This document shows positions 29,531 through 64,000 of a stretch of 64,000 nt of DNA, one piece after another (the first letter of the stretch is position 1; each line of letters starts with the position of its first letter). The notes below the pieces were generated by a model. That model was not told the DNA's origin. It ran no database searches and worked only from the letters and a program-made list of their open reading frames with translations. Source of the stretch: an uncultured Gammaproteobacteria bacterium (lineage in GTDB: Bacteria; Patescibacteriota; Microgenomatia; Levybacterales; UBA12049); assembly GCA_964364105.1 (NCBI GenBank), contig CAYILI010000001.1:14465-78464 (forward strand). The letters are read 5' to 3'. The position numbers and the translations under genes are program-made.

Positions 29531-29784
29531 CCTGTTAAATAAGATTTAAGTCTATTTCTTAAAAACATCTTTCCATGATATGTTTTAAGATATTTTTCTC
29601 TATGAGTGGCATCTTGCTGATTTAGACAAGCTTCATAGTAAATGAGCTTAAACTTCCCCCTTTCTTTAGTGGATGCAACTTGTTTATTTTCATGCTGCTT
29701 AAATCTTAATTTTAAATCCTTGGTATAACCAGTATAAAACATTTTATCTTTGTCGGATCTAAGAATATAAATGTAGTAAAACAT
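29527..29784 (-). CDS. Stand-alone GIY-YIG nuclease (85 aa), copy 1
   Basis: MFYYIYILRSDKDKMFYTGYTKDLKLRFKQHENKQ contains the GIY-x(10)-YIG core. The C-terminal YLTG is encoded by the TIR. The ORF-track 126-aa version adds an unlikely N-extension. Confidence 0.8.
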   Translation of the reverse strand: MFYYIYILRSDKDKMFYTGYTKDLKLRFKQHENKQVASTKERGKFKLIYYEACLNQQDATHREKYLKTYHGKMFLRNRLKSYLTG

Positions 29785-29811
29785 TCTGGATTTAAAATTA
29801 TTTAACAGGGT
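29529..29811 (-). mobile_element. Miniature TIR element copy 1 (283 bp) encoding a GIY-YIG nuclease
   Basis: Perfect 14-bp terminal inverted repeats: ACCCTGTTAAATAA at 29529-29542 and TTATTTAACAGGGT at 29798-29811. A second copy lies 1.8 kb away. Confidence 0.75.
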
Positions 29812-34630: not shown

Positions 34631-34668
34631 AAACTTCTAATGTTATAATGTAAGAAATTTAAATCCTG

Positions 34669-36519: not shown

Positions 36520-36525
36520 TAGGAT

Positions 36526-40600: not shown

Positions 40601-40682
40601 TAACCCAAATCACTATATCAGTAAGTTATTTTTTTGTAAACCTTAAAATAGCCGCATATCAATTGAGTCTTAATACAATTTA

Positions 40683-40712
40683 TTGTTACACTGTATTTAG
40701 TGATGATATAAT
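40683..40712 (+). promoter_or_regulatory. Candidate sigma70 promoter for the SGNH hydrolase gene (TTGTTA-18 nt-TATAAT)
   Basis: -35 at 40683-40688 and -10 at 40707-40712, about 17 nt upstream of the ATG at 40729. Confidence 0.35.
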
Positions 40713-40728
40713 TAACAACATATAAAAT

Positions 40729-41715: not shown

Positions 41716-41744
41716 ATATTTAATTTCTGAGTATATAAATATAA

Positions 41745-42815
41745 TTATTTCTTTCTTTTATTTTTTTTAAATTCTAACAAATCCTGAAATAAGCCAATTA
41801 ATAAAATCATGTATCCAAATGCTGACACATCATCAACAAATAGGCTCCAATTAAAATATGTAGCAATTACTGATATACAAATTATCACAAGCGCCAATAA
41901 ATAAGTTATCTTTGAACTAAATTTATTTATATATACTGCTATAATCCATAACCCTAATAAACCTAGTGTTAATCCAGTTGTAATTATATCAATGGCAAAT
42001 AAATAAACTAATATCAGCGTTAAACACAATAAAGCGTAAGAATATTTTTTCTTGCTCAAGAATTGCTCTTTCAATCGTTTAATGACCCCAGAAACAAGCT
42101 TATTTTTTTTTATAAAACTAGATAATGTATTTTCCTGAACAAAAATAATATATACAATGTAAAAAATAAAAGGCAATAAAAAGAACGAACTGTCAAGCAA
42201 ATAATCTTTATTTGTAAAAATCGCTATGATCTTGCTGATAGTAAAGTCGACGAATTCATTTTTTTCTTTTAAAATTTCTCCTTTGCTGAATTTGTATTTG
42301 GTTGTGAATTTTAAATTCGAACCATGTATTTGTATAGCATTAGATGGATCTCCATTTAGTGAAGAGATTTCAAACACATAACTTTTATCTTTAGAATCTT
42401 CAATTATTCCAAATCCAAAAGGAAAATACGAATCAGGCTTCATTTGTCCTGATCTATACTTATTTGTATAAAGCCACTCATCCATACCCTCTTCTTTAAT
42501 CCTAAATATCAAAATATCCTCTTGCTTATAGTCAACCCTTGTTACATCCTCGATCTTAACTGTTACTATTCCTAAATTGTTTTTCTTTGCTAAAAATTTA
42601 CCACTAATTTTCTCATTTTTTAAAATTTTACCATCAATAGGATTCTTTGCAATTTCTTGGCTATGTAAATACTCTAATACAGAGGGACTCTCATACGATC
42701 CGTTAATTAGAGATGGGAAGAACCATAAAAACAATAGAAGAAATGGAATAAGTATCCACTTAACTAGCTTAAACGATATAATTACTTTAAATGATTTTGA
42801 AAGATTTTTATGCAT
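41745..42815 (-). CDS. Membrane protein, paralog B of 37188-38252
   Basis: LGIVTVKIEDVTRVDYKQEDILIFRIKEEG...FPFGFGII, collinear with the paralog A partner. Confidence 0.4.
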   Translation of the reverse strand: MHKNLSKSFKVIISFKLVKWILIPFLLLFLWFFPSLINGSYESPSVLEYLHSQEIAKNPIDGKILKNEKISGKFLAKKNNLGIVTVKIEDVTRVDYKQEDILIFRIKEEGMDEWLYTNKYRSGQMKPDSYFPFGFGIIEDSKDKSYVFEISSLNGDPSNAIQIHGSNLKFTTKYKFSKGEILKEKNEFVDFTISKIIAIFTNKDYLLDSSFFLLPFIFYIVYIIFVQENTLSSFIKKNKLVSGVIKRLKEQFLSKKKYSYALLCLTLILVYLFAIDIITTGLTLGLLGLWIIAVYINKFSSKITYLLALVIICISVIATYFNWSLFVDDVSAFGYMILLIGLFQDLLEFKKNKRKK

Positions 42816-45078
42816 TTTTATTTTTCTTAATCTTTTTGATTAAAACAAATGTAAAAATTAGAAAAAACACAGATAGCATCACCCCTAAATAAAAGTATAC
42901 CTGAGGAAGAAAATATAATGTTAAAACAATGTCAATATCTCCATTCTTATTTTCTACAAAATAAGAATTTTGTAATTTACTTTTAACTTCATCTTCACTT
43001 ATTATCCATTCATTACCATATACTTTAATCGGCCTATGAGACTCATCAAATATTGGCTTCTTAAATAGATATAAAATATCACCAATATTGCTAGACATTG
43101 TGTTTTCGTAAGTTTTATCCCCTGAAAAAATCTTCCATCCTGAATTGTAAGTTTCATGAAAGTATAGAAATTCTTGTTGATTTAAATTTTTTATTGTGAC
43201 TTTATATTTAACTGGACTTATCTTTTCATATGATACATTTCCTGTTGAATCGATAACCTCTGGAGAGTTCTTTAATTTATATATTACATATTTTCCTGAA
43301 TCACTTTGAACTAACTCCCGGTCTGAGATTGACCTGATTAATTCATCATCTTGAAATTTCAAATAATCATGATCAAATAAATACGATTTCTTGACTTCCT
43401 TAGGAATGTTTTTTGTCACCATGACATAACCTACATTAACTTGTTCGAGAACATTTAAAAGCTTGTTGTAGTCTCTTTTCGTCACTGATTCAACAACTAA
43501 ATTAGAGATGCTGCTAGGATACGAGGCGGTTCCGCTCAGGTCATTCACGCCTGTTAAAAATTTGAATGGGGATGTTCCTACATATGCATTTTTCCCATTT
43601 TCTTCTGTTATTATTGCGTAAGATGCAATATTTTGCGGAAATCCAATCACATTCTCAGTCTTAGGTAACTTGTTACCTGTTTCTCTTGCAAAAGATAAAT
43701 ATTCATCAGGAAAATGAACAGTTTGATAAATATTGTTAGTTCTCCAAACTGGCCTATTAATTACTTGTTTTACGGGAATAAAATTAATTATAACCACTAA
43801 AATAACTAAAGCTAAAAAAAGAGAATAAAATCTGAAAAATTTCTTTATTACAAATAAACATTGTGTCAGGAAAATTGCGTAAATAAAAATGTAACCTAAT
43901 GAAAATTTATCAATAAAATTTCTAAATACAGAAAACCCTGGGATGTTACCAAGAAATAAAAAAATGTTTTTCAGTACTCCTACATTAATAGTAAAGAAAT
44001 AAAGTGCTGCTAAAAATGCTATAAAGAAAAATATAAACTTATTTTTCTCATCCTTCTTTAATACTTGTTTGTATTTAACTAGCCCCAAGAACAAAACTAC
44101 AACAAAAACTAAGCTGAGAGGCAGAACATAATCATAATAATTAAGAAAGACATTTTTTAATTGACCATCGAAATCAAACAAAATCTGTCTATGATAAAAA
44201 GTTAAGAGAGGATTAATGATATTTCCAGTTGCAATAGAAAGAACTGTGGGCGCAAAGCTATCAACAATTTCCTTAGAAACCGGCCTTACGCCAAGACCAC
44301 CATCACCTACATTTCTTAAAGACATCACGAATGGGAATAACCAAAATAATTGACTAGAGAAAATAGAAAAAATAAAAATTGAAGTCTTTCTTGCTCTGTT
44401 TTTAAGTGGATTTTTAATAAAAACGAGGAAAATAATAAAAGCACTCAATAAAGGTAATAATAATCCTGCTATCCATACAACCGCATAAAATGCTAATGAA
44501 AGAAATATGCACCAGAGCACAACTTTAAAAACATCTTGGGTCTCACCTCTATGAAGGAAGCATAAGTAATAGTAGAAAATGATCGGCACCAAACATACTA
44601 ACCAAACAGGGCTTAAAAAATAAGCAAGATGACTTGCGGCAATTATAGGCGAGAATATATAAAACACAGCCCCTACTATGGAAATTAAATATTCCTTACC
44701 AATAATCTCTCTAACCAATTTTTGGAAATAAATAAAACCTAAAACCAAAACCATTGAAAATGATGAATAAGAAAGTATGATTTTTGAATTTAATAAATTA
44801 TCAAAAAACGCAGAAGCAAGTAAAAAGGGGATGTACTGATGATTTGGAATATATAGCGGAAGCGATGAGATATTATTCCAGGAAAATAAGGACAAACTTT
44901 TTAACAAGGCTGATGGATAATAATAATAAAATCTAGTGTCGTCCCCTCCCAAAAAAAGCCTACCGTCGAACAAATAATAAGGAAGATATATTAGATATCC
45001 AACAATAATTGAATTTATTATTACAATTGCTACAAAGTAAGCTTTTTTACTATTAAATAAGTTAAGATTAAACCCCAT
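42808..45078 (-). CDS. Large polytopic GT-C-like membrane protein (756 aa), paralog B
   Basis: GGDDTRFYYYYP motif and global collinearity with 38249-40600. Confidence 0.45.
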   Translation of the reverse strand: MGFNLNLFNSKKAYFVAIVIINSIIVGYLIYLPYYLFDGRLFLGGDDTRFYYYYPSALLKSLSLFSWNNISSLPLYIPNHQYIPFLLASAFFDNLLNSKIILSYSSFSMVLVLGFIYFQKLVREIIGKEYLISIVGAVFYIFSPIIAASHLAYFLSPVWLVCLVPIIFYYYLCFLHRGETQDVFKVVLWCIFLSLAFYAVVWIAGLLLPLLSAFIIFLVFIKNPLKNRARKTSIFIFSIFSSQLFWLFPFVMSLRNVGDGGLGVRPVSKEIVDSFAPTVLSIATGNIINPLLTFYHRQILFDFDGQLKNVFLNYYDYVLPLSLVFVVVLFLGLVKYKQVLKKDEKNKFIFFFIAFLAALYFFTINVGVLKNIFLFLGNIPGFSVFRNFIDKFSLGYIFIYAIFLTQCLFVIKKFFRFYSLFLALVILVVIINFIPVKQVINRPVWRTNNIYQTVHFPDEYLSFARETGNKLPKTENVIGFPQNIASYAIITEENGKNAYVGTSPFKFLTGVNDLSGTASYPSSISNLVVESVTKRDYNKLLNVLEQVNVGYVMVTKNIPKEVKKSYLFDHDYLKFQDDELIRSISDRELVQSDSGKYVIYKLKNSPEVIDSTGNVSYEKISPVKYKVTIKNLNQQEFLYFHETYNSGWKIFSGDKTYENTMSSNIGDILYLFKKPIFDESHRPIKVYGNEWIISEDEVKSKLQNSYFVENKNGDIDIVLTLYFLPQVYFYLGVMLSVFFLIFTFVLIKKIKKNKNA

Positions 45079-45113: not shown

Positions 45114-45719
45114 TTAGATTTGCTTTATTACTTTTGCCGGGTTTCCAACTGCAATTGAATTGCTTGGTATATTCTTCGTAACTATCGAACCTGCACCAAT
45201 TACTACTCTATCTCCTATTACTACGCCTGGCAATACCACAGAGTGCGTACCAATCCACACATCTTCTCCGATTGACACTGGACTAGTTTCATATCCTTGC
45301 TTATCGATAGGAAGAGATTTATTTTGAAATTTATGATTAAAATCAGTAACAAAACAAAAAGCAGCAATCTTAGTATTTCTACCGATTGAAATAGATTCGT
45401 GAGCCATTATAAAAGTATTATCATCAATTAATGAATTTTCCCCTATAAATATTTTTCCGTTATCCCCGCAGGTTATCCTTGTCTCTTTACCAAGTATCGT
45501 ATGATTTGAAATTTCAACAGCGTGTTTAGTGCTTTGAAAAAAATGATTATGCCCTCTTAAAACCACAGACTTACTTATTTTGTAACCCCTAATATTCAGA
45601 AAGAAAATCTTAATCAAGGAACAAATATGAAGCAAAATATGCTTAATGATCTGAACCGTTGTTTCAGCAGATCCTCTTTTTTTAAATGATTTTAAAATTA
45701 AATTAAGATTTTTCAACAT
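45114..45719 (-). CDS. Hexapeptide-repeat acetyltransferase (maltose/galactoside O-acetyltransferase-like)
   Basis: IGENSLIDDNTFIMAHESISIGRNTKIAAFCFV...VWIGTHSVVLPGVVIGDRVVIGAGSIV. Confidence 0.75.
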   Translation of the reverse strand: MLKNLNLILKSFKKRGSAETTVQIIKHILLHICSLIKIFFLNIRGYKISKSVVLRGHNHFFQSTKHAVEISNHTILGKETRITCGDNGKIFIGENSLIDDNTFIMAHESISIGRNTKIAAFCFVTDFNHKFQNKSLPIDKQGYETSPVSIGEDVWIGTHSVVLPGVVIGDRVVIGAGSIVTKNIPSNSIAVGNPAKVIKQI

Positions 45720-45728
45720 ACTTACTAT

Positions 45729-47003
45729 TTATTTTCTCTTATTCATTTGTCTAAAGGCACCTGCAAATGAATTTTCCCATGTATTATGCTTTGCAAATTC
45801 CATAGCATTTTTTCTAAGCCTCAAGTAAAGTTTTTTATCTGAGAATATATTCATAACAGCATCTGCAAAACTTTTCGGATCATCATGCACCCTCAAGGCA
45901 GCTCCTCTATCTGCCGCATCAATACCCAATGGTGGAACTTGTGAACTAACAATAGAAATTCCAGCCGCCGCATATACACGAATTTTACCAGCATCCGCAT
46001 AATATCTCAGAGACCCAGGTATATCCCTATAAGGAGCTAATCCTACAGTACAATTTTTAATTAGATCAGACATATCTGAACTCTTTTCAACAAAACCATG
46101 CACATAAACAGACTCTTTAAGTCCTTTTTTTTGAACAATTTTCCTAAGCCATTCAAAATCTTGCTCTGTGCCACCTATCATATGCAATTTAGCATCTGGG
46201 AATTTTTTTAACACCAAATCCAGTGCTAAAATTGCTACATCAGGACCATTCTCGCGTCCTAAAGTTCCCATATATACCATTGAATGATTTTCAATTTTCG
46301 AGACGGGATTTGCCTTAATTTGATCTGGATACAAACCATTCGGTACGTGTATGACTGATGCAGATTTATTTGAATTAAGACCAACACTTATTCTTGCTGG
46401 TTGCATTGCCTTAGAAACATCCCAAATGTAATCAGCGTGCATCGCACAAAAACGATCCAGCAAAAGATATACAGTATTAAACCATTTACTTGGGTATCTA
46501 TTTGGGGAATAATCTGAAACGTAATAAACTACAACTTTAACACGCCGAATTTTTCTCAAAAAAATAGCAGCCAGCGTATTTATACTTTCGAGACATATAC
46601 AATAATCAAATGAAGTCTTATCTCTTAATGACCAATCAATTACTGAGAGGAAATCTCTAATTTTAAATATTGGCTGAGTAGTACTCTTATTAAACTTATT
46701 AAGGAGTGGCTTCAGTAAATATAAAATTTTAGAACTTTTATAAGATTTAAAGTTCTTATTATTCCTAGAATAGACTTCTATCTTAGGCATGACTTCATCG
46801 CTTCCCGGATGAGCCTGATCAATAAGGACAAACTTCTTTACTCGTGGTACAAGAAAATCTCTCATAGGCTCAATACTTCCATTAGTGGGCATACGACTAC
46901 CATTAATCCATTTGGAGAAGCTAACAAAAAGAACGGTTTTATCTTCTAATAATTCACCAATCTCTTTTTTAGCCATTTTTAAGTTTTTTTCTAGCTTCGG
47001 CAA
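45729..47003 (-). CDS. GT-B glycosyltransferase (GT4/GT1-like)
   Basis: C-terminal Rossmann half with HMIGGTEQDFEWLRKIV...HGFVE pattern. Confidence 0.5.
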   Translation of the reverse strand: MPKLEKNLKMAKKEIGELLEDKTVLFVSFSKWINGSRMPTNGSIEPMRDFLVPRVKKFVLIDQAHPGSDEVMPKIEVYSRNNKNFKSYKSSKILYLLKPLLNKFNKSTTQPIFKIRDFLSVIDWSLRDKTSFDYCICLESINTLAAIFLRKIRRVKVVVYYVSDYSPNRYPSKWFNTVYLLLDRFCAMHADYIWDVSKAMQPARISVGLNSNKSASVIHVPNGLYPDQIKANPVSKIENHSMVYMGTLGRENGPDVAILALDLVLKKFPDAKLHMIGGTEQDFEWLRKIVQKKGLKESVYVHGFVEKSSDMSDLIKNCTVGLAPYRDIPGSLRYYADAGKIRVYAAAGISIVSSQVPPLGIDAADRGAALRVHDDPKSFADAVMNIFSDKKLYLRLRKNAMEFAKHNTWENSFAGAFRQMNKRK

Positions 47004-47781
47004 TCATCTGCTCTAACCCTTCCTCCAACGACACCTGAGGCAACCAACCAGGTATCCTTCCCATATTATCTGAGGGGAGCGGATCTCTTCCTTTAAGTTT
47101 TCCGGGGTAGCACTTAGCTCCTGTCATTTTAGATATCATTGTAGCTATATCGATTATCCTTACCCATTCATAACTGCTTGCATCATATACAGTTTTTCTT
47201 AAATTATTTGAATTTAAAGCCAAATAAAACGCGCTACTCAGATCATTTATATGGGTGAACTGCCTCCACTCTTCACCATTTGTCATCATTTCTATCTTTT
47301 TTGTTTTAAGTGCCTGATATATAAAGTCTGATATAACATGACTTTTTACACTCTCTTCCTCCATAACTCCATACGCATTCCAAACCCTCACGCATTTTCC
47401 TCCCAACTGATCCGTCCATACTTCACCTAGTCTTTTGGTAACTCCATAAACAGTATCCACCTCTTCTGATAACTGACTTGAAATAAACAGAAAATCTTTC
47501 TTTCCATGAAGCTGATCAAATACATTCCTCATGAGGTCCAAATTCCATTTAAGCTGTGACATCTGTCGATTTGGGTCATATAAATATTTTGATCCCCCTA
47601 CATCCCATGCTAAAAAATATATTTTGTCTACTTCATTAAAACTGAATTTATAAGTTCTCCCGTCCTCGTTTTTACTTCTTTTAATATCGAAACGTATTAC
47701 TTTTTCTCCTTTGTCTTCAAGAAATTTTGAGAATGGTTTTCCAATAAAACCCTCAGATCCAATAACTAAATTTTTTGTCAT
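46969..47781 (-). CDS. Short NAD(P)-dependent epimerase/reductase (SDR superfamily, 270 aa)
   Basis: N-terminal VIGSEGFIGKPF Rossmann motif. YGVTK (YxxxK). Confidence 0.5.
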   Translation of the reverse strand: MTKNLVIGSEGFIGKPFSKFLEDKGEKVIRFDIKRSKNEDGRTYKFSFNEVDKIYFLAWDVGGSKYLYDPNRQMSQLKWNLDLMRNVFDQLHGKKDFLFISSQLSEEVDTVYGVTKRLGEVWTDQLGGKCVRVWNAYGVMEEESVKSHVISDFIYQALKTKKIEMMTNGEEWRQFTHINDLSSAFYLALNSNNLRKTVYDASSYEWVRIIDIATMISKMTGAKCYPGKLKGRDPLPSDNMGRIPGWLPQVSLEEGLEQMIAEARKKLKNG

Positions 47782-47795
47782 AATTTCAATTAGTT

Positions 47796-48788
47796 TTACT
47801 TCTTGGACTTATCAACTTGCTCAAGAATCCACGAATAAGTCTTAGTTAAACCATCTACTAGCGGAGCATCTGGAGCCCAACCTAACTTCTTTTTAATCAA
47901 TTTATTATCTGATTTTCTTCCTCTAACGCCAAGAGGACCAGGGATATGTTTTATTTTCACTTTTTTCCCAGCAATCTTCATCACCATTCCTGCTAATTCA
48001 TTAAGGGTTACCATCTCTTCTGATCCAATATTAACGGGGCCTGTAAAGTCACTATCCATCAGCCTTCTAACTCCTTTTAAGCATTCATCTATATACAAAA
48101 ATGTTCTTGTTTGCTTTCCATCTCCCCACATATCTATCACTCCACCTTCTTTTGTTTCAGCTACCTTCCTACACATCGCTGCTGGAGCTTTTTCTTTGCC
48201 ACCCTTCCATGTACCCTCTGGACCGAATATATTATGGAACCTAGCAATTCTTACTTCTAATCCATAGTTTCTATAGTACGAAAGATATAATCTTTCTGAG
48301 AATAACTTCTCCCAACCATATTCGCTGTCTGGTGCCGCTGGATACGCTGATTCTTCTGATAATTTTGGATTTTTAGGATCTAGCTGATTATAAGCTGGGT
48401 AAATACAGGCTGAGGAAGAATAGAATATTTTTTTTGATTTCGTCTCTAAGGCTTTTTGCAAAACGTTTAAATTAATCAGAGCAGAATTTGTCATTATGTT
48501 TGCGTCATTTTCACCTGTAAAAATATATCCAGCTCCTCCCATATCTGCTGCAAGCTGATAGATCTCATCATATTTTCGATCAAAGATCTTTTTGACTACC
48601 TTTTGATCCGTTAAATTTCCGATAACGAATTTTTCCGCTTCTGTTTTACTATATTCAGGCTTCTTAAGATCAACGCCAACTACGAAAAATCCTTCTTTTT
48701 TTAATTTCTTAACTAAGTGGCTACCTATAAATCCACCAGCTCCACAAACCAGTGCTGTTTTATTTAATTTCTTTACTTCTCTATTCAT
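47796..48788 (-). CDS. GDP-mannose 3,5-epimerase-like NAD-dependent epimerase (GME family)
   Basis: CGAGGFIGSHL Rossmann motif. The blocks LAADMGGAGYI, SSSACIYP, RFHNIFGPEGTWKGGKEKAPAAMCRK, MWGDGKQTRTFLYIDEC, HIPGPLGVRGRKSDN and KLGWAP match my recollection of GDP-mannose 3,5-epimerase block by block. Confidence 0.6.
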   Translation of the reverse strand: MNREVKKLNKTALVCGAGGFIGSHLVKKLKKEGFFVVGVDLKKPEYSKTEAEKFVIGNLTDQKVVKKIFDRKYDEIYQLAADMGGAGYIFTGENDANIMTNSALINLNVLQKALETKSKKIFYSSSACIYPAYNQLDPKNPKLSEESAYPAAPDSEYGWEKLFSERLYLSYYRNYGLEVRIARFHNIFGPEGTWKGGKEKAPAAMCRKVAETKEGGVIDMWGDGKQTRTFLYIDECLKGVRRLMDSDFTGPVNIGSEEMVTLNELAGMVMKIAGKKVKIKHIPGPLGVRGRKSDNKLIKKKLGWAPDAPLVDGLTKTYSWILEQVDKSKK

Positions 48789-48870
48789 TTCGGATTACTT
48801 GGTATAATTTAGCATATTTATTTGAAACTTTAAAGTGTTTCCAAATTTAATTCATGTTCAATAGAACTAA

Positions 48871-49734
48871 TCAGTTCAAATTAATATTTTTATATAAAAA
48901 ATCTCCCAGTGGCAGTCTCCCTTGACTCACATCAGCATAGTTCCTGAATCCAACTAGCTGAAAATTATAACTCTGACTATACAGCATTGAATTTATTTCA
49001 CTAAAAGTATAGTTTTTATTTCCTTCAATCGTAATTTCGATTAATAAATATCTTGTCTTCATTAAGGTTTTCTTTGCACCTTTCAAAACCTGCTTTTCAA
49101 ACGATTCAACATCAATTTTCAAAATATCTATAATTGAAAACTTTGATACTAATAAATCCAGCGGCAAAACCTTCACCCTCTCAACGATAAGTTTTCCACT
49201 TTTTTTGCCTCGTGTTAAACCCCTCAATGAGCTTATAGCTGAGGATTGCGTATCAATTGTAAGCCTAGCAAATCCACTCCGGTCAGAAGCTGCTTTTTTG
49301 ACTAAAAAAACATTTTTATCTTTATTAAGGTTCATAAACAATGCCTTATAAGTCTGCTCTGCGGGTTCGACTGCGATAATCTTGCATCTTGGGAATAGCT
49401 CTCTCATCAGTAAAGAGAAAAATCCAACATTCGCTCCCACATCAACAACATATTTTACATTACGAATATTTGCTATCTTAATTAAATTATTGTGCCTTGT
49501 TAAAATGCTTTGATATCCGCTAATACCAAGATGAGAATCGTAATAAATATCTTTGCCAAAAAGTGAAACAAAACTTTCGCCTAATCTGAAATTCTTCAGC
49601 CTCAAAATATATTTTAATATCTCTATATATTTCTTAATTAAAAACGTAAATTTCCATTTATATGACCAGGAACATACTTTTAAGAAAATTAAATCTAAAA
49701 TAATGGATTTCTTAACAAACCAATAGAAACTCAT
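48871..49734 (-). CDS. FkbM-family methyltransferase
   Basis: VVDVGANVGFFSLLM...KIIAVEPAEQTYKAL. Confidence 0.7.
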   Translation of the reverse strand: MSFYWFVKKSIILDLIFLKVCSWSYKWKFTFLIKKYIEILKYILRLKNFRLGESFVSLFGKDIYYDSHLGISGYQSILTRHNNLIKIANIRNVKYVVDVGANVGFFSLLMRELFPRCKIIAVEPAEQTYKALFMNLNKDKNVFLVKKAASDRSGFARLTIDTQSSAISSLRGLTRGKKSGKLIVERVKVLPLDLLVSKFSIIDILKIDVESFEKQVLKGAKKTLMKTRYLLIEITIEGNKNYTFSEINSMLYSQSYNFQLVGFRNYADVSQGRLPLGDFLYKNINLN

Positions 49735-49737
49735 CCC

Positions 49738-50904
49738 TTATTTCCTCCTTGAATACTCGATGGAAATTCTTTCAAAAGTTTTATTTAGAATTTTTTCTAT
49801 ATCTCTCTCTGATGCAAGCTCTAATGCATTAGCTCTAAGCTCTAAGTATAATTTTTTATTTTCTACTATTTTTTTAATTGCTGATATAAGTTCTTTTTCA
49901 TTGGCTTTTATATTAATCCCAGCATGGCTTTCAACTATATCATCTGCTGTCCCATTGTCCCCCGAAATTATAACTGGTAATCCCAAAGCTAAATAATCTC
50001 TTGCCTTCATTGAATCCATATAATATTCCCCGGAGTAGCTGTTAACATAGAACGCTAAACCAATTCCATGACTTGCTATTATTTTGAAAAGCTCATCATG
50101 TGACATTGATCCAAGGAATAAAATATTTTTTTGTAATTTTTTTTTCTTAACTAAAGCTTTTATTTTTTTTTCCATCAACGGCAAACAAACAAATGTTAAT
50201 CTTATTCGCGGAATGTCCTTTATTAATATCTCCATAGCATTTAGGAGCATGATAAATTCACTAACTGATTTTCTAGCTGATACCACAATTAGCTTATTGG
50301 GATTACCTGACTTTAAAACTAATTTTTTTGTACGTGAAATTGCCGGAGAATTTGGAATCCAAACTAATTTTTCACTTGGAATCCCATCTCTTCTTCTAAT
50401 ATCCAATATGCGTTTGGAAACAGCTAAAATTATGTCTGAGTTTTTATTTGTTAGCTTATCTAAAAAATGATAAAAAATATTTAATAAATAATTAGGGTAT
50501 CTCGTCTTTGTATAGTCAGGATTAAAGGTGATAAAAATACGCACCTTATTCATTTTTTTTAATATAAGTCCCCAAAATGCATTCAAAGGATCTTCACCTA
50601 TATAAACTATCTCTGACTTCTTGAAAAACATAAAGACCGCTGTAAATGTTATCCATCCCTCTAAAAGTCTTATTCCCAATTCTCCAAAATAGGGCTTATG
50701 CTCAATAATTTTTTCAATTCTGTTTATCCCATCAAAAAAAGTAATAAATGTAATTCCTTCATTGTAGATAGAGTGTCTTATGAATAAATAAGGCTGTTTT
50801 TCTCTTTCTAAATGGTACGCGAGGGAGTGTCCTGGACCGGGATTATCAGTTTTATTTTTTCCAATCGCCGTATGCGATACTACACAATAATTAATTTTCT
50901 TCAT
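49738..50904 (-). CDS. GT-B glycosyltransferase (GT4-like)
   Basis: Two-Rossmann architecture with a C-terminal E...LGLPVIISGDNGTADDIV motif. Confidence 0.5.
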   Translation of the reverse strand: MKKINYCVVSHTAIGKNKTDNPGPGHSLAYHLEREKQPYLFIRHSIYNEGITFITFFDGINRIEKIIEHKPYFGELGIRLLEGWITFTAVFMFFKKSEIVYIGEDPLNAFWGLILKKMNKVRIFITFNPDYTKTRYPNYLLNIFYHFLDKLTNKNSDIILAVSKRILDIRRRDGIPSEKLVWIPNSPAISRTKKLVLKSGNPNKLIVVSARKSVSEFIMLLNAMEILIKDIPRIRLTFVCLPLMEKKIKALVKKKKLQKNILFLGSMSHDELFKIIASHGIGLAFYVNSYSGEYYMDSMKARDYLALGLPVIISGDNGTADDIVESHAGINIKANEKELISAIKKIVENKKLYLELRANALELASERDIEKILNKTFERISIEYSRRK

Positions 50905-51802
50905 TTTTCATCAATCTTAAGCCATCTTTAACAGAAACAGGATCCACATCTAAAAGCCTCTTTATTTTTGTTATGTTAAGATATGTGTTCTTAGGTCTAG
51001 GTGTAATGTTTGGAAAATAATCACTTGAAACAGGGACCAACAATTCACTTCTAAATCCAAACACTGATGATAATTTTTTTGCAAATTCATAACGACTAAT
51101 ACATTCTGATCCTGCGACATTATATATACTTTTATTTTCTAATTTATTTTTTTTATTCAATAAAATCTCCCATATAATTTTCGCTGCATCATTTGCATAG
51201 ATAAAATTATTATAAATATCATCAACTACCTTAATTTCTCTTTCTTTTCTTAGCTCTTCTATCATCCATGTTGCAAGATTAGATCTTTCATATTTATTAT
51301 TCCAACCATACATCGTCATTAATCGTATAATTGAGTAAACATTAAGCCCGTTTTTTACCAACTCTTCAGCTTCCAATTTTGTCTTACCGTAATATCCCAC
51401 CGGAGATGGTTTGCTTTTTTCAGAAAATGGATGTCCGATCCCATTAAATACTGCGTTTGATGAAATATATAGGATTGATGAGTTTATCTTCTTAGCTTCA
51501 TCTATAATATTTTTTGTTCCTCCTACATTAATCTTCCATGCTTCTTTTTTATGAGACTCACAATAATCTACATTTCCCATTGAGGCTGCATGAACAATTA
51601 AATCTGGTTTATATTCGCGAAATATTTTTTTTACATCTCTCTTTTTCGTAATATCTAGTTGGATATATTTTATGTTTTTATTTTTTAATTGGTCTTTTTT
51701 ATTATTTAAAAATGTAGCAAAAACAAACTGGTCTTCAGGTATTTCTTTTAAGAAATATTTTCCCAGTAAACCTTTTCCGCCTGTAAAAAGAATTTTTTTC
51801 AT
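50891..51802 (-). CDS. SDR-family sugar-nucleotide 4-reductase (RmlD-like)
   Basis: KKILFTGGKGLLGKYF, LDITK, HAAS and YGKTK (YxxxK). Length and order are RmlD-like. Confidence 0.55.
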   Translation of the reverse strand: MKKILFTGGKGLLGKYFLKEIPEDQFVFATFLNNKKDQLKNKNIKYIQLDITKKRDVKKIFREYKPDLIVHAASMGNVDYCESHKKEAWKINVGGTKNIIDEAKKINSSILYISSNAVFNGIGHPFSEKSKPSPVGYYGKTKLEAEELVKNGLNVYSIIRLMTMYGWNNKYERSNLATWMIEELRKEREIKVVDDIYNNFIYANDAAKIIWEILLNKKNKLENKSIYNVAGSECISRYEFAKKLSSVFGFRSELLVPVSSDYFPNITPRPKNTYLNITKIKRLLDVDPVSVKDGLRLMKNEEN

Positions 51803-51814
51803 TAAATACGATAC

Positions 51815-52570
51815 TTATCTTTTCTTAAAAACAATTTCCCAATCATAATATCCCAATATCGGAATACTTATTCTTCTGATTTGTCTTAGCAAACTATTAT
51901 TATTAAAAAAATTTGTATTATTAATTGACATTCTCCTCAAAGCGAAATCCATAATCGGAAACCAGATCTGCTGTTTGTTAGTTTCTAAAATTTTGAATTT
52001 CTTACTATCTATTAAGCCTAAAAGCTCCTCATCCTTTTTGTATTCCCTTAAATGAGTTACATCTAAAACCCATTTTCCGCTTCTCCTATAAAAATACCAT
52101 CCATACCATTTCTTAAATACTGTCGTAACATATGCAGTTCCATCTTTTTTAAGCACTCTATCTATGGAATTCAGCATTTTTTTATCGTCAACATGTTCTA
52201 TTACTTGCGTGGAAATAAAGAAATCGATAGATTTATCCTTAATTGTAACCAAATCCTCAGCACTATCTATGAATGCGTTTATAGATTTATTTAATTTCCT
52301 TATATTCTCAATTCTTTTTCTAGACAAATCAACGGCAATAATCTTCTTATTTAGTAGATATTTATTTCTTATTAGGGCATCAAGAAGAATACCATCACCA
52401 CAACCACAATCCATTATTGTATTAAATTTTGTTTTTTTTAAATATTTTGCTAAAAGAGCTGGAACATCGATACCATAATACTGAACAAATTTTTCTGAAT
52501 GTATTTCCAGATTTCTGCTAGTCGAAATCTTTCTGACATTTTTCTTAACGCTTAAGTTATTTTTTTTCAT
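51815..52570 (-). CDS. Class I SAM-dependent methyltransferase
   Basis: Motif I IMDCGCGDGILLDAL, then IIAVDLS. Confidence 0.7.
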   Translation of the reverse strand: MKKNNLSVKKNVRKISTSRNLEIHSEKFVQYYGIDVPALLAKYLKKTKFNTIMDCGCGDGILLDALIRNKYLLNKKIIAVDLSRKRIENIRKLNKSINAFIDSAEDLVTIKDKSIDFFISTQVIEHVDDKKMLNSIDRVLKKDGTAYVTTVFKKWYGWYFYRRSGKWVLDVTHLREYKKDEELLGLIDSKKFKILETNKQQIWFPIMDFALRRMSINNTNFFNNNSLLRQIRRISIPILGYYDWEIVFKKR

Positions 52571-53417
52571 ATTTATTCTGAATATAATTTAAGATCATTC
52601 CACAGAATCCTGCGAAGTATTCAATAATACGCATTACTATAAAACAAATGGCAACTACTGGCTCCCTAGCGAACAACCTCCAATTTCTTATATAGGAGGC
52701 TTTAATCGGATTATAACTTGAAATCCATGACTTTGGTCTTTTGTTGAAATAATTTACCATTTCTTTTCCGTACATAAAACGCTTCTTGAATAACTTTACA
52801 ATCGACAGATTACCTTCATTATGCATAACAATACTTTTTGCTCTCCCAATGCTATAGTTTTTTTCCTTTAATTTTTGAGACAAATCAATATCATCTCCAC
52901 CTGCCCCTAAAGATAAATCAAATCCGCCTATACTAAACCAGACACTTTTTTTAAAAAAACGCGGACTCTCAACAGTATCATCTCCCCAATAACAGCGCCT
53001 CTCTAATTGTTTTGCCTTAGCCCAAATCCCCACCCCGAATGAATCCTCTCGCAAAATAACAGAATCTACTCCCTTCTCACATATACCTACAGCTTCCTTA
53101 ATAAGATTCTTGGACAACTCCATATCAGCATCTAACCAGTAGACAAATTCTCCTTTTGCCTTTTTCATCCCAAAATTTCTCTTATGAGGCGCATCAAAAA
53201 TACCACTCTTAACCCTTGGTACGTATGTATAAAATTCACACTTATATTTTTCAGCTAACTCCTTAACATTATCTGTAGATTTTCCATCAATTATAAGTAT
53301 TTCTATATTGGGATATGACTGAGATCTAATATGCCTCAGGCAGCTATCGAGAAATGCAGCTGAATTTCTGGTTGGAATTATTATGGAAACTAGTTTGTGA
53401 TTATCGCTTGTTTTCAT
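52557..53417 (-). CDS. Glycosyltransferase family 2
   Basis: VSIIIPTRNSAAFLDSCLRHIRSQSYPNIEILIIDGKSTDN. Confidence 0.8.
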   Translation of the reverse strand: MKTSDNHKLVSIIIPTRNSAAFLDSCLRHIRSQSYPNIEILIIDGKSTDNVKELAEKYKCEFYTYVPRVKSGIFDAPHKRNFGMKKAKGEFVYWLDADMELSKNLIKEAVGICEKGVDSVILREDSFGVGIWAKAKQLERRCYWGDDTVESPRFFKKSVWFSIGGFDLSLGAGGDDIDLSQKLKEKNYSIGRAKSIVMHNEGNLSIVKLFKKRFMYGKEMVNYFNKRPKSWISSYNPIKASYIRNWRLFAREPVVAICFIVMRIIEYFAGFCGMILNYIQNKYEKK

Positions 53418-53512: not shown

Positions 53513-54769
53513 TCATGACAGTATACGAATTATCTTATTAATTTCTCTCTTAGTTAACTCAGGATTGTTTCCAACGTAGAACCCTTGATCATGCGCGATT
53601 CCTGAATTCTTATTATTAAGATGCGTTTTAATATATTTCCTAAAGAAAGGTTGTCTTGTTAAATCACCACCCACGATTGGCCTAGTTTCAATTACGCTTT
53701 CACATTTTCCCAATAACTCATCTCTTATCTTGCTTGACTTACAAATTATAGGAATAGCAAAATTAGATACAAAATCTATGTGATCATATTTAAGTGGAAA
53801 ATAATTTTTATTGTTATAAATAGCTTTCGCAATGGTTAGGAAATTACAATTTCTTTTTTTATTAATCTCATCAATATATTTTATTCCGATATTACCCACG
53901 AAACCATTTATCTCAGTTGGCCTTAAATTGAATCCTAAATCATAAAATGTGTATCTTGAGTAAAAAGTTGAATTAACTTTAAATTTTTTCCTAATCTGAT
54001 CTTGTTTTGCAAAATTAAGATTTCTATCCCATCCATGCGCTCTAACCATAGAAAGCATATTCATTAGCTCTTCGTCATCAGTGCTGATAACTCCCCCTTC
54101 AATTGTTGAAAGGTGATGCCCAACATAAAAAGAGCATGTACTTGCTAAACCAAAATTACCGAGTTTTCTACCTTTATAAACTGTCCCTAAAGATTCACAA
54201 TTATCTTCAATAAGTATTATTTTGTTTTTTTTGCAAATCTTTTGAATATTTTCCAAATCACTACAAAACCCTAGCGCATTTGTAACAAACAGTGCTTTTA
54301 ACTTTTTTTTATTAATTATTGCGCCAAGCTTTTGACTCGAAATGTTTAGTGTCTCAATTTCAATATCAATAGGGACGGGGTTTAAACCTAGCTGGATTAA
54401 TGGCATAACATTTGTACTCCAAGATAGAGCAGAAAATCCCACACTATCTCCTTTTCTTAGTCTTTTTAAATTTAAAAGGGATTGAATCAGTGCTAAATTT
54501 GCGGAACTTCCACTATTTACAAATACACAATACTTTCGCTCTTGATATTTTGCAAAATTTTTTTCAAACTTCTCACACTCAACTCCAAAGCTTAATTTTT
54601 TTGATCTTTTTATGAATTTTTGCAGATCATTTTTTACATTCTCTTCCCTATAGAATGTCGACTTAATTAACGGAATCATATAATTTTCTAAACCTAAAGA
54701 AACTATATCGAATTCATGGCAGAAGTGAACCTGATATTGCCTTACTATTCTTAATCTATATATTAACAC
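53513..54769 (-). CDS. DegT/DnrJ/EryC1/StrS-family PLP/PMP enzyme with His in the Schiff-base Lys position. Likely a sugar 3-dehydratase (ColD/E1-like). The real start is probably the MIPLIKS Met near 54679.
   Basis: The motif SFYVGHHLSTIEGG aligns to the family consensus SFHxxKxxxxGEGG. H replaces K at the PLP-binding position, which is the known hallmark of ColD-type and E1-type 3-dehydratases. Confidence 0.65.
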   Translation of the reverse strand: MLIYRLRIVRQYQVHFCHEFDIVSLGLENYMIPLIKSTFYREENVKNDLQKFIKRSKKLSFGVECEKFEKNFAKYQERKYCVFVNSGSSANLALIQSLLNLKRLRKGDSVGFSALSWSTNVMPLIQLGLNPVPIDIEIETLNISSQKLGAIINKKKLKALFVTNALGFCSDLENIQKICKKNKIILIEDNCESLGTVYKGRKLGNFGLASTCSFYVGHHLSTIEGGVISTDDEELMNMLSMVRAHGWDRNLNFAKQDQIRKKFKVNSTFYSRYTFYDLGFNLRPTEINGFVGNIGIKYIDEINKKRNCNFLTIAKAIYNNKNYFPLKYDHIDFVSNFAIPIICKSSKIRDELLGKCESVIETRPIVGGDLTRQPFFRKYIKTHLNNKNSGIAHDQGFYVGNNPELTKREINKIIRILS

Positions 54770-54827: not shown

Positions 54828-55940
54828 TTAGATTAACGCAAATTCTAAAAATTTACCTGCAGTATTAGACCATGTATGTTTCTTTCTTTCACTTACTGCG
54901 CCCTTCTGTAATTTAGCGTAAAAATTATCATCCTGTAAAATTTTTTGTATATTATCTGAAAGACTTTCAGGACTATTTTCTTGACAAATTATTCCATTAA
55001 CATTATCCTTTACGATGTCTCTAAGACCTGGAACGTTATAAACTACCGCTGGGGTCCCCCTAGCTCCTGCCTCATGCACAGTTAACCCCCACCCCTCCTT
55101 AACTGATGGAGCAATAAGAATATGCGCTCTAGTTAATAATTCTTCCTTCTTTTCTTCGGTAACATAATCAAAAAACTTAATATTTTCACTAAGATCTAAA
55201 TCTTTGACAAGTTTCTGAAGCTCAATTACAAACTCACCCTCTCCCCGGCCAATTATCCATAGTTTAATATCTGGAATAATTTTCTTGATAATTTCTACTG
55301 CTTTAATTGCGTCAATTACTCCTTTTGTTTTAGAAAGACGTGACACAAAAATTAATGTTTTTTCTTTTTCTTTTTTTGGAAGATTACTTACTATTTTTGA
55401 ATTTGAACCCATAGGAATTACTTTTACTTGTGAGTTTGAAAAACCGTTCTTTTCGATTTCTTTTTTTGAAGATTCTGAAATAGTTATTATTGGAATATTT
55501 TTATATAAATTTGGATATATTTTTTCAATTATTTTTCCAAATATATTAAATGGAAAACCTACTGCAATATTCCAAAGGTCACCAGCAATTTCGCAAATTA
55601 AAGCAACCTTTTTTTCCTTAACATAAAGGGTTGTAAAAAAAGGTATTCCATGCACTTCATCAATTACTAAGTCAACTTTTCCTTGAAAATTCTTTTTATA
55701 TAATCTGTATGCAGCAAAATGAACTGATTTAAATAGTCTTCTCGCATCCGGATCTCCAGACCTAATTATTCTAACTCCATCTATAATTTCTTCATTTCTT
55801 GAACCTTTAAAATGAGCGCTGATTTGAGTTACAACGTGTCCTTTTTTAACAAATCCTGATGCTAATTCCTGAGTCAGTATTTCTGCGCCCCCAGATGAAG
55901 GGTTTTTAATATCTCTCCAATTTAAAATTAATATTTTCAT
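54828..55940 (-). CDS. Glycosyltransferase family 4
   Basis: MKILILNWRDIKNPSSGGAEI... start and EGWGLTVHEAGARGTPAVV. Confidence 0.8.
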   Translation of the reverse strand: MKILILNWRDIKNPSSGGAEILTQELASGFVKKGHVVTQISAHFKGSRNEEIIDGVRIIRSGDPDARRLFKSVHFAAYRLYKKNFQGKVDLVIDEVHGIPFFTTLYVKEKKVALICEIAGDLWNIAVGFPFNIFGKIIEKIYPNLYKNIPIITISESSKKEIEKNGFSNSQVKVIPMGSNSKIVSNLPKKEKEKTLIFVSRLSKTKGVIDAIKAVEIIKKIIPDIKLWIIGRGEGEFVIELQKLVKDLDLSENIKFFDYVTEEKKEELLTRAHILIAPSVKEGWGLTVHEAGARGTPAVVYNVPGLRDIVKDNVNGIICQENSPESLSDNIQKILQDDNFYAKLQKGAVSERKKHTWSNTAGKFLEFALI

Positions 55941-57271
55941 AAATCTCTATAAAGAATAACAGCCAGAAAACTTAATGAAAAAATTCCAATTAAAAATAAA
56001 TAGTTGAGAGAAAATATTTGTTTTTTAAATTTAATGTTTGGAAAAAATAATGGTAAAAGAGTTAAGCTAGACAGAATTAAAAATCCTCTAAAAGCAGCAA
56101 ATGAAAATCCAAACATATTAGTCCACGTAAGTTCCAGGAGCGAAAGACTTAAAAATAAAATAAATAAGAATGTAAGAAGTATATTTTTATTAAAGTATTC
56201 CCTTATAAAAATTGCTAAAGAAATTGCCAGAAACGGATAAAATGGATATCTATACCAACCATGTCCCGGCTCGTTTGGAATAGCAAAAATGAATACTCCA
56301 AGGTAAGCAAATAATCCCAAAATAATAACAAAATTTTTTTTAAAATCTTTAGCTAAAAGAAGAAAGAAAGATATCCATCCGAAATATATCCACCCGTCAA
56401 TCATGTGCCTATCGACTAAGAAAGGCTCTTTAAAAAGCGCGTATACACTATTAAATGTCAGATCATATCTTTCTATCTGAAGCTTCCATAAACTCACGAA
56501 CAAATCCCAATCATAATAATATCCGTAAGCAATATATCCTAGGAAAAAAGCCAAAACTATTCCAAAAACAGCAATCGACTCTTTATATTTTTTAGAATAA
56601 ACTAAAATAGAAATTACAGCTACGCTTGCAGCGATCCAAGGAACTTTAGAAATAATAAGAAGACCACACAAAAGGGAAACTATTACAATATAAATTCTTT
56701 TCTTATTCTTTATATATTTTATCGTAAATAAAAGCGCAGTTAAGAATCCCGGAATGAAAAAATTCTCGTTCTGAACGATCCTGGATCCAATCGCAACAGT
56801 TGGAATAATCGCATAAATAAAACTTGCAAGAAGAGCGGTTTGTTTATCATAAATTTCTTTTACCAGAAAAAATAAAACTCCTATTGATATTACACCAAGA
56901 AGAATTGCAAGCGGACGAATCCTTCCAACATCAACATCATACATATCATCTACCCCATTTAAAAGAGCAAATGAACCTGCTACGATTCCAAAAAATGGTG
57001 GATGCTCTAGATATGGTTTTACAATCCAGAAAGCTGCACCTTTATAAATTAGATGTTCTCTTTCAGAATCTATATACTGCGGATGCGAAGACCAGGACTT
57101 AGGAGTCCCCTCCTGAATCAGATTTATTCCAAGCCATGTCCAGGCAAACTCATCCATGGTAGCACCAAAACGGGGCGTTATCGAATAATTATGAACTCGT
57201 AAAACTAGCCCTATCAATAAAATTGATGCAAGAATAATAATTGTTTTTCTTTTTAAAATTTCAGTCACCAT
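55937..57271 (-). CDS. Polytopic GT-C-type membrane glycosyltransferase (ArnT/PMT-like, 444 aa)
   Basis: About 12 TM helices. The first extracytoplasmic loop is rich in D/E and aromatic residues. Confidence 0.45.
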   Translation of the reverse strand: MVTEILKRKTIIILASILLIGLVLRVHNYSITPRFGATMDEFAWTWLGINLIQEGTPKSWSSHPQYIDSEREHLIYKGAAFWIVKPYLEHPPFFGIVAGSFALLNGVDDMYDVDVGRIRPLAILLGVISIGVLFFLVKEIYDKQTALLASFIYAIIPTVAIGSRIVQNENFFIPGFLTALLFTIKYIKNKKRIYIVIVSLLCGLLIISKVPWIAASVAVISILVYSKKYKESIAVFGIVLAFFLGYIAYGYYYDWDLFVSLWKLQIERYDLTFNSVYALFKEPFLVDRHMIDGWIYFGWISFFLLLAKDFKKNFVIILGLFAYLGVFIFAIPNEPGHGWYRYPFYPFLAISLAIFIREYFNKNILLTFLFILFLSLSLLELTWTNMFGFSFAAFRGFLILSSLTLLPLFFPNIKFKKQIFSLNYLFLIGIFSLSFLAVILYRDL

Positions 57272-58002
57272 TATTTATAATAATTTAGAAATCTTAATCT
57301 ATAAAATACCGCTAATGTATCGACAAGCGTCAAAAAGGATATTTTCCAGAAGTTAGTACTAGTTACACTTCCTTGTTTAAAAGTTAATTTTATAGGAGCC
57401 TCTATTATTTTCGTATAACCTAACATCCTTGCTACAGCAAGAACTTCAACATCGAACGCAAACGCTTTAACAATTATTTTTGGGAATACTTCCTTCGCTG
57501 TTTTTCTTCTAAAGAATTTAAGCCCAACCTGAGTATCTCTAACACTAAGCCTGAAAAGTAGCTTAATAAGACTTCTATATCCCCAGGATAATATTTTTCT
57601 ACTTAACGGATACTGAATAATAGAGTCCGGATGAAGCTTACTTCCTATGACTATATCTGCCTTATTCCATTCCATCATATTTAACATGAGCGATATTTCT
57701 GAAGGACTTAGATCCATACCAGCATCTATAAATCCGATTACGTCTCCCTTTGCCTTTTCCACACCAAGCTTTATCGCAAATCCTTTACCTTTATTTAATT
57801 CGTAGCCGAGAGGAATAACCTTACTGTTTTTAATGTGCTTTAATTTTTCAAATGTTTGATCTAAAAATCCATCAACAACAACTATTATTTCATACTCAGA
57901 TGTTATCGAACTCAATGCTAAATTAAGACTTTTTACATCCTCTGTTATTGTTTTTTCCTGTTTGTAAGCAGGAACTATTAAAGAAATAAAATTAGCAGAC
58001 AT
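57271..58002 (-). CDS. GT2 glycosyltransferase (polyprenyl-phosphate sugar synthase-like)
   Basis: ISLIVPAYKQEKTI...YEIIVVVDGFLDQT. Confidence 0.8.
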   Translation of the reverse strand: MSANFISLIVPAYKQEKTITEDVKSLNLALSSITSEYEIIVVVDGFLDQTFEKLKHIKNSKVIPLGYELNKGKGFAIKLGVEKAKGDVIGFIDAGMDLSPSEISLMLNMMEWNKADIVIGSKLHPDSIIQYPLSRKILSWGYRSLIKLLFRLSVRDTQVGLKFFRRKTAKEVFPKIIVKAFAFDVEVLAVARMLGYTKIIEAPIKLTFKQGSVTSTNFWKISFLTLVDTLAVFYRLRFLNYYK

Positions 58003-63702: not shown

Positions 63703-64000
63703 TTTTACTATGCCACTGCCAAGCGGTTTTTACAATTGTTTCAATATCTGAATATTTTGCTTCAAAACCTAATTCCCCCCTAATCCTTGATGGATCTGCA
63801 ATAAGTCTGTCTGCGTCCCCGGGTCTTCTTGGACAAGCTTCTACATCGGTAGTTAAACCACTTATATTCATCACTGTCTCAATCACTTCTTTGTTAGATA
63901 CCCCTTTTCCAGTGCCTACATTATAAAAATACCCGCCACTATTATTTAAAACTTTATTAAGAGCTAAAATATGAGCTTCTACTAGATCTAATACATGTAT
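63695..64000 (-). CDS. galE: UDP-glucose 4-epimerase GalE, C-terminal part only. The N-terminus lies beyond the window end.
   Basis: Translated through the window end with no stop: IHVLDLVEAHILALNK...YNVGTGKGVSNKEVIETVMNISGL...CPRRPGDADRLIADPSRIRGELGFEAKY...AWQWHSKN. This matches the GalE C-terminus. Confidence 0.8.
   Translation of the reverse strand: MHVLDLVEAHILALNKVLNNSGGYFYNVGTGKGVSNKEVIETVMNISGLTTDVEACPRRPGDADRLIADPSRIRGELGFEAKYSDIETIVKTAWQWHSKNG

Follow-up and report, generated by a model that had tools for sequence, protein, structure and literature searches.

A candidate ColD-type sugar 3-dehydratase in a glycan locus of a patescibacterial genome

The gene and its active site

A minus-strand gene at positions 53513-54679 encodes a DegT-family protein that appears to be a pyridoxamine 5'-phosphate (PMP)-dependent sugar 3-dehydratase of the ColD type. 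It lies in a stretch of 64,000 nucleotides (hereafter the window; contig CAYILI010000001.1, positions 14,465 to 78,464, assembly GCA_964364105.1) that was deposited as an uncultured Gammaproteobacteria bacterium and is placed by GTDB in the Levybacterales of the Patescibacteriota. An earlier note on this DNA, made from the letters alone, had taken the gene to be the whole open reading frame (ORF) 53513-54769. We verified that frame on the minus strand, where translation from GTG 54769 gives 418 aa, including LASTCSFYVGHHLSTIEGG, and residues 46-417 match the Pfam family DegT_DnrJ_EryC1 (PF01041) at E 3.2e-60. Frame and family thus stand, but the start is more likely ATG 54679, yielding 388 aa, because relatives are 388-392 aa long and open with MIxLIK. 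In one related locus (L001 in our numbering), the syntenic orthologue is annotated with 388 aa and begins 152 nt after the gene upstream of it. The 30 extra N-terminal residues encoded from GTG 54769 onward are probably untranslated, and with the ATG start the catalytic His becomes residue 188, the same number as in ColD.

The active-site block SFYVGHHLSTIEGG (54092-54133, minus strand) contains the codon of His188 at the position where aminotransferases of this family carry their Schiff-base Lys; its first His is encoded by CAT at 54116-54118. When the protein was searched against all PDB sequences, the top four matches were ColD/WbdK of Escherichia coli O55 and its mutants (1.9e-56, 194.9 bits; best match 2gms), followed by E1 of Yersinia (2.5e-45, 158 bits), while true aminotransferases ranked only from 1e-26 downwards. 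The closest proteins of solved structure are therefore ColD and E1, the two 3-dehydratases that the earlier note had named. The HMMER alignment places the GHH of the query on the SHH of ColD, and the PDB entries for the H188N (3b8x) and H188K (2r0t) variants depart from wild type precisely where the query has its first His, which fixes the register. We also aligned 88 family members with ColD, E1, and 19 DegT paralogues from the same loci using MAFFT. The Schiff-base column held His in every family member (HH in 87, HQ in one) and Lys in 15 of the 19 paralogues, so the His is neither chance nor an alignment artefact. No Lys falls at the Schiff-base position in the query, and the note's central observation, a His in place of the catalytic Lys, was thus read in the correct register.

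The query and ColD have SGSSAN, SWST, EDNCESLG, and RAHGW-RNL in common. Aligned pairwise with HMMER, the two proteins agree fully or almost fully in these cofactor motifs, which do not vary in either family alignment; presumably the Gly/Ser loop SGSxAN, the Asp of EDNCE, and the Ser before the His loop bind the cofactor. ColD (PDB 2GMS, 3B8X, 2R0T, 3GR9) further resembles the query in fold, in length (388-390 aa against 388), in the second His that follows His188, and in having no iron–sulfur (Fe-S) cysteine cluster, although the residue before the first His is Ser187 in ColD and Gly in the query family. E1 of Yersinia pseudotuberculosis (DdhC/RfbH/AscC, 3BCX) likewise has the DegT fold, the His-His pair at the Lys position, and a PMP-dependent C3 deoxygenation of a 4-keto-6-deoxyhexose, but it is 437 aa long, carries [2Fe-2S] cysteines, needs the reductase E3, acts on a CDP-sugar, and is 30.9% identical to the query (35.7% for E. 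coli ColD). Its segment RDCYCAPGCDNTC holds three of the four ligands of the cluster; opposite it, the query has the Cys-free RAHGWDRNLNFAKQDQIRKKF and is ColD-like. The three cysteines of this segment, downstream of the His loop in E1, are without counterpart in the query, which has no Cys between residues 183-279 (in a 389-aa numbering, equal to the 388-aa numbering plus one). The [2Fe-2S] cluster of E1 is documented (PMC8987622), and we found no ferredoxin-reductase-type or 2Fe-2S protein among the 61 window ORFs scanned with Pfam.

Profile and structure comparisons gave the same picture. The best NCBIfam model was RfbH (NF011936), whose 232.7 bits lie far under the equivalog cutoff of 423, and every aminotransferase equivalog model fell far under its own cutoff. 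We built an AlphaFold2 model from an alignment of 30 homologues (mean predicted local distance difference test score, pLDDT, 82.9; predicted template-modelling score, pTM, 0.85). Foldseek against the PDB returned ColD chains as all 12 best matches (template-modelling score, TM, 0.79-0.82, about 0.81 at the top), and E1 (TMq 0.76 / TMt 0.71) and aminotransferases ranked after them. The aminotransferases Per, ArnB, and PseC share the fold (TM 0.76-0.80), and Per also shares the GDP-4-keto-6-deoxymannose substrate proposed below, but all three keep the Schiff-base Lys, transaminate C4, and are only 19-25% identical to the query. These comparisons of sequence and predicted structure support a ColD-type, Fe-S-independent, PMP-dependent nucleotide-sugar 3-dehydratase.

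Relatives of the gene and their neighbourhoods

The 120 best database matches were 66-87% identical to the query and 387-404 aa long; sampled clade members were 50-87% identical, and mean column identity was 78% over 30 homologues. Named members come from Levybacteria, Yanofskybacteria, Saccharibacteria, other Patescibacteria, and DPANN-type archaea, with a few more from metagenome-assembled genomes labelled Gammaproteobacteria or Niabella. The window itself encodes DUF5667 and DUF4012, domains typical of the Candidate Phyla Radiation (CPR), and it matches assemblies from the 0.1-um fraction of Hainich groundwater. In a neighbour-joining tree rooted on Lys-bearing paralogues, the clade was sister to ColD, while E1 joined four other His-bearing paralogues from these loci. 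The GDP-heptose C3-dehydratases of Campylobacter jejuni are 62-67% identical to ColD (PMC10440746), compared with about 36% for the query, so the clade is distinct from classical ColD. The protein is thus a new member of a known enzyme type, within a deep and uncharacterised CPR/DPANN clade. A full-text literature search found no co-mention of colitose with CPR or DPANN.

The four paralogues that group with E1 form a second set of DegT proteins with His for Lys (L027:13231-14466, L046:899-2212, L075:16219-17430, and L094:5590-6795). Their motifs at this position are SHVIT, AHQIT, SHIIT, and SHIIN, respectively, and they may represent another type of 3-dehydratase.

We examined 90 loci encoding family members and scored the neighbouring genes against E. 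coli K-12 Gmd, Fcl, and RmlABCD as well as the window proteins. Of these loci, 26 have a Gmd or Gmd-like gene, which lies no more than 100 bp from the dehydratase gene in 20, and 36 have an Fcl/ColC-like gene, which lies within 130 bp in 26; RmlB occurred in a single locus. Where at least 5 kb of flank was available on each side, 21 of 27 loci had Gmd, Fcl/ColC-like genes, or both. The order Gmd - ColD-like - (Gmm nudix) - Fcl-like recurred in L009, L010, L027, L046, L060, L062, L068, L069, L076, L081, L083, L085, and others, with Gmds 51-67% identical to that of E. coli and Fcl-like neighbours scoring 214-286 bits on the GDP-L-fucose synthase model. This placement between gmd and fcl/colC-like genes is the gene order of GDP-colitose biosynthesis, so the clade most likely acts on GDP-4-keto-6-deoxy-D-mannose.

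Two of the loci link the dehydratase to a different reductase. In the archaeal locus L013 (JBDRJI010000039.1), positions 4110-6119 form one 669-aa ORF in which a ColD-like domain (Pfam DegT, residues 31-405) is fused to an RmlD-like domain (Epimerase/RmlD-like, 417-624), and in L012 the stop codon of the dehydratase gene falls within an RmlD-like gene. The fusion argues that an RmlD-like short-chain dehydrogenase/reductase (SDR) reduces the 4-keto product of the dehydratase. L013 also encodes Gmd, a GDP-mannose 3,5-epimerase (GME) 66% identical to the window copy, a WecG/TagA-type glycosyltransferase, and, at the place equivalent to a 270-aa SDR of the window, a 270-aa SDR that is a weak homologue of it (21% identity, E 3e-8). 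The presence of Gmd there argues that the set of GME, 270-aa SDR, and RmlD-like enzyme still depends on Gmd. An RmlD-like reductase that is fused to the dehydratase or encoded beside it would offer a substitute for ColC in the final step.

Together with L001, L003, L004, L006, and L021, the window forms the nearest subclade. Here the dehydratase gene adjoins a family 4 glycosyltransferase (GT4), a PMT_2-type GT-C, and a small family 2 glycosyltransferase (GT2), and a flippase-like gene and GalE are not far away. To this set the window and L001 add the RmlD-like SDR, the 270-aa SDR, GME, FkbM and class-I methyltransferases, and an O-acetyltransferase.

In four loci of one subclade, an SDR of 312-318 aa is encoded immediately upstream of the dehydratase (L028:9012-9950, L036:9015-9971, L043:6268-7221, and L050:5700-6647) and scores 182 bits on PF16363. 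It was a candidate for a compact 4,6-dehydratase, which we did not accept: where 4,6-dehydratases have ST(S/D)E it reads STSQ, and it is about equally similar to several SDR types, its best matches being dTDP-glucose 4,6-dehydratases (E 5e-36) but also epimerases and the GDP-4-keto-6-deoxymannose reductase Rmd. The window contains no orthologue of it.

Sugar genes of the window and a candidate pathway

In the window, the dehydratase gene is not beside gmd or colC as in colitose clusters but sits inside a GT4/GT-C/GT2 block, near genes for an RmlD-like reductase, the 270-aa SDR, and GME. The GT4 (54828-55940), PMT_2 GT-C (55937-57271), and small GT2 (57271-58002) genes, all identified with Pfam on the minus strand, have orthologues (43-96% identity) adjoining the dehydratase gene in L001, L003, L004, and L006, and likely use the glycan precursors. 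On the other side lies a co-directional sugar-modification block (45114-53417, all minus strand) that is wholly syntenic in L001 at 75-91% identity; the L001 dehydratase is 87% identical to the query. Pfam and NCBIfam identified in this block a hexapeptide O-acetyltransferase (45114-45719), two GT4s (45729-47003 and 49738-50904), an FkbM methyltransferase (48871-49734), a class-I methyltransferase (51815-52570), and a GT2 (52557-53417).

Several genes in and beyond this block could supply or finish the sugar, and the identities that the earlier note had given to three of them were confirmed. The product of 47796-48788 (minus strand) is a GME orthologue: it matches Arabidopsis GME (PDB 2c59) at 2.1e-100 and keeps SSACIYP, Y..K, and EKAPAA, the motifs of the catalytic Cys, Tyr-Lys, and Lys. 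The gene at 50891-51802 (minus strand) encodes an RmlD-like NAD(P)H-dependent SDR (Pfam RmlD_sub_bind, 2.7e-57; TIGR01214 rmlD, 182 bits, cutoff 224) and is our candidate 4-ketoreductase. Some 36 kb from the dehydratase gene lies a ManC-type mannose-1-phosphate guanylyltransferase (16250-17323, minus strand) with the Pfam domains NTP_transferase and ManC_GMP_beta-helix. Its TIGR01479 match (225 bits) spans positions 3-347 of 467, covering the guanylyltransferase part and no phosphomannose isomerase domain, and a 353-aa alignment with E. coli CpsB shows 30% identity. ManC and the genuine GME both handle GDP-mannose. Next to GME, the compact 270-aa extended SDR (46969-47781, minus strand; Pfam Epimerase, 4e-17), with the Rossmann motif GSEGFIG and the catalytic motif YGVTK, is 91% conserved in L001 and is possibly a reductase or epimerase of the same branch.

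The chemistry of ColD is summarised in PMC8987622 and PMC10440746. By analogy, PMP would form a ketimine with the C4 carbonyl of a nucleoside diphosphate (NDP)-4-keto-6-deoxyhexose, His188 would take the C4' proton from PMP so that the C3 hydroxyl is expelled, and hydrolysis of the resulting ene-amine would release NDP-4-keto-3,6-dideoxyhexose and ammonia. Transamination of L-glutamate would then turn pyridoxal 5'-phosphate (PLP) back to PMP, and with PMP regenerated in this way, no reductase partner would be needed. We infer the substrate, partner enzymes, and product from sequence and gene context. The substrate would be GDP-4-keto-6-deoxy-D-mannose, made by a Gmd encoded outside the window from GDP-mannose that the window ManC would supply. 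The 4-keto product would be reduced at C4, most likely by the RmlD-like SDR and perhaps by the 270-aa SDR. GME may provide GDP-L-galactose or GDP-L-gulose for another glycan residue, or it may epimerise the 3,6-dideoxy sugar at C5; on stereochemical grounds, inverting C5 of 3,6-dideoxy-D-arabino-hexose yields colitose, its L-xylo isomer. The expected product is a GDP-3,6-dideoxyhexose, either colitose or a stereoisomer, which the GT4, GT2, and GT-C enzymes would build into a methylated, acetylated surface glycan.

The C3-dehydratases of C. jejuni HS:5, HS:11, and HS:45 offer a partial precedent: they are PLP/PMP-dependent and glutamate-recycled, remove the C3 hydroxyl of a GDP-4-keto-6-deoxy sugar, and are followed by a separate reductase and a separate epimerase with a His/Tyr catalytic dyad (PMC10440746). 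They differ from the query in belonging to the classical ColD clade and in acting on heptoses. Their partner epimerase is reportedly a cupin (RmlC-like) and not a GME-type SDR. It is conceivable, though on balance doubtful, that the window encodes an undescribed GDP-3,6-dideoxyhexose route in which a separate RmlD-like 4-ketoreductase, possibly together with a GME-type 5-epimerase, replaces the bifunctional ColC/Fcl. Such a route could lead to colitose by a different enzyme logic or to a D-series sugar such as GDP-tyvelose, which to our knowledge is not known in nature. In a bolder version, the 4-keto substrate may not derive from Gmd at all. This possibly variant downstream half is the only part of the pathway with real potential for novelty; the mechanism itself is not new.

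Overall, we consider it likely that the protein is a ColD-type 3-dehydratase without an Fe-S cluster that works on the GDP-4-keto-6-deoxy-D-mannose route to a surface glycan. Several observations weigh against this. A tblastn search of the 64-kb window with E. coli Gmd gave no match at E <= 1e-8, one with RfbB revealed no 4,6-dehydratase, and Fcl matched only the GME gene, so that no Fcl/ColC-type gene was found either. Pfam and NCBIfam scans of the 62 window ORFs of at least 120 aa, plus one gene cut by the window edge, returned no dehydratase. The gene at the edge (63704-64000, minus strand) is an SDR that we considered as the missing 4,6-dehydratase, since it accompanies the dehydratase gene in L003, L004, and L006, and then rejected: it encodes the C-terminal 99 aa of a GalE-type protein whose full-length homologues in L003, L004, and L006 are GalE at 383-400 bits, over the cutoff, and GalE accompanies the GT2/GT-C/GT4 block. 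The earlier note was thus right that the window has no 4,6-dehydratase, and its proposal of a GDP-linked sugar is supported indirectly by the many relatives that lie between gmd and fcl/colC-like genes. Nor is there a Gmd or Fcl gene within 10 kb on either side in L001, L003, L004, or L006, or on the 7-kb contig of L021. Elsewhere in the clade, CDP-glucose 4,6-dehydratase-type genes occur within 5-9 kb of the dehydratase gene in L094 (500 bits on TIGR02622) and L028 (223 bits, under the cutoff). In the structural model, the active-site loop (residues 187-193) has low confidence, and the neighbour-joining tree carries no support values. Finally, the query is only 36% identical to characterised ColD, as against 62-67% among characterised GDP-hexose and GDP-heptose 3-dehydratases (PMC10440746), and similarity alone cannot transfer specificity over that distance. 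The simplest reading of the missing step is that its gene, presumably gmd, lies in another part of the genome, outside the window.

The only serious alternative, which we regard as unlikely, keeps the same ColD-type 3-dehydration but gives this subclade another carrier, with CDP- or dTDP-4-keto-6-deoxy-D-glucose or a UDP-4-keto sugar as substrate, and ManC and GME would then serve another glycan residue. The window and its subclade, where GalE, GT2, PMT_2 GT-C, and GT4 stand in place of nearby Gmd and Fcl, are consistent with this, as are the bona fide CDP-glucose 4,6-dehydratase of L094 and the borderline one of L028. In addition, L004 has a glucose-1-phosphate cytidylyltransferase-like gene (238 bits against a cutoff of 300) with an SDR gene after it, and FdtA/aminotransferase genes in L003 and L006 imply dTDP-4-keto-6-deoxyglucose in those loci. 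However, the family is sister to ColD and not to E1, and L027 (65%), L046 (63%), and L060 (61%), which are only 2-8 points less identical to the query, lie in canonical gmd - colD - fcl operons. In the next subclade, the dehydratase gene is immediately followed by a gene of the Fcl family, which acts on GDP-sugars (214 bits with the GDP-fucose synthase model), and L013 joins the GME/270-aa SDR/RmlD-like set to Gmd. Glucose-1-phosphate cytidylyltransferase-like genes in L034 and L039 were also considered as evidence of a CDP-deoxy sugar and rejected: they are paired with a UXS/ArnA-like SDR and UDP-glucose dehydrogenase and so belong to a UDP-glucuronic acid branch. L094 and L028 still stand as weak counter-examples.

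Departures from ColD-type chemistry seem far less probable. One would be that the protein removes no hydroxyl group at all and is either a sugar aminotransferase working without an internal aldimine or a catalytically dead paralogue, which we judge very improbable. The fold is that of an aminotransferase, and SpnQ can transaminate when its reductase is absent, but wild-type ColD and E1 do not transaminate their sugars, a reaction reported only for the H220K variant of E1 (PMC8987622). Moreover, a His that is invariant in 88 members, together with the mean column identity of 78% in the alignment of 30 homologues, points to a selected catalytic role, and true Lys-bearing DegT aminotransferases coexist in the same loci. 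Least credible of all is an E1/SpnQ-type dehydratase of the kind found in the CDP-3,6-dideoxyhexose and forosamine pathways, which depends on an Fe-S cluster plus a separate reductase (E3 or a ferredoxin/flavodoxin reductase). RfbH is indeed the best NCBIfam model, and JGI labels some relatives 'CDP-6-deoxy-D-xylo-4-hexulose-3-dehydrase' or 'E1', but the RfbH score is far under its cutoff, the three downstream cluster cysteines are absent from a ColD-like segment, and E1 is longer (437 aa against 388). E1 also falls on the other branch of the tree, and no candidate reductase partner of the ferredoxin-reductase or 2Fe-2S type appeared among the scanned window ORFs.

If the ColD-type assignment holds, C3 deoxygenation of an activated 6-deoxyhexose would be assigned to a large, unnamed clade of 'DegT aminotransferases' in CPR and DPANN. 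This predicts 3,6-dideoxyhexoses on the surface of ultrasmall, host-attached CPR/DPANN cells; elsewhere, such sugars are known chiefly from the O-antigens of enteric bacteria, where they are immunodominant. As a guide to annotation, the His/Lys column separates dehydratases from aminotransferases in these loci.

Other features of the window

We observed several other features in the window, mostly on the minus strand. Positions 1-10145 (minus strand) hold a division and cell-wall (dcw) cluster with mraZ, mraW, a penicillin-binding protein, three Mur ligases, murA, and mraY, the last cut at the window start. Inside it, the NTP-transferase at 843-1583 is a homologue of the GlmU N-terminal domain; at 246 aa it consists of the nucleotidyltransferase domain only, and such a stand-alone uridylyltransferase domain is unusual there. 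In the glycosyltransferase region, a 1077-aa ORF (23764-26997, minus strand) matched no Pfam family at E <= 1e-4.

Two paralogous two-gene cassettes on the minus strand, at 37188-40600 (354 and 783 aa) and 41745-45078 (356 and 756 aa), likewise have no Pfam match. Homologues of the cassettes (320 and 766 aa) border the glycan loci of L003 and L006 as well as the end of L001. The cassettes sit in the part of the window with the lowest GC content: positions 34001-44000 have 26-29% GC, compared with 32-39% across most of the window, and this part contains mostly unannotated large ORFs as well as the window's only two plus-strand genes of at least 300 aa.

Two nuclease ORFs lie between glycosyltransferase genes. 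One (18519-18932, minus strand), for a 137-aa protein of the PD-(D/E)XK_3 nuclease family (E 1.5e-30), has a GT4 gene on either side and runs into the start of the downstream GT4. The other is a 126-aa GIY-YIG nuclease ORF (29527-29907) within 28394-30346 (minus strand), where it lies between two GT4 ORFs and overlaps both: a 182-aa ORF with only the GT4 N-terminal domain (29798-30346) and a complete GT4 (28394-29530). Possibly a homing endonuclease inserted here and thereby split or duplicated a glycosyltransferase gene.

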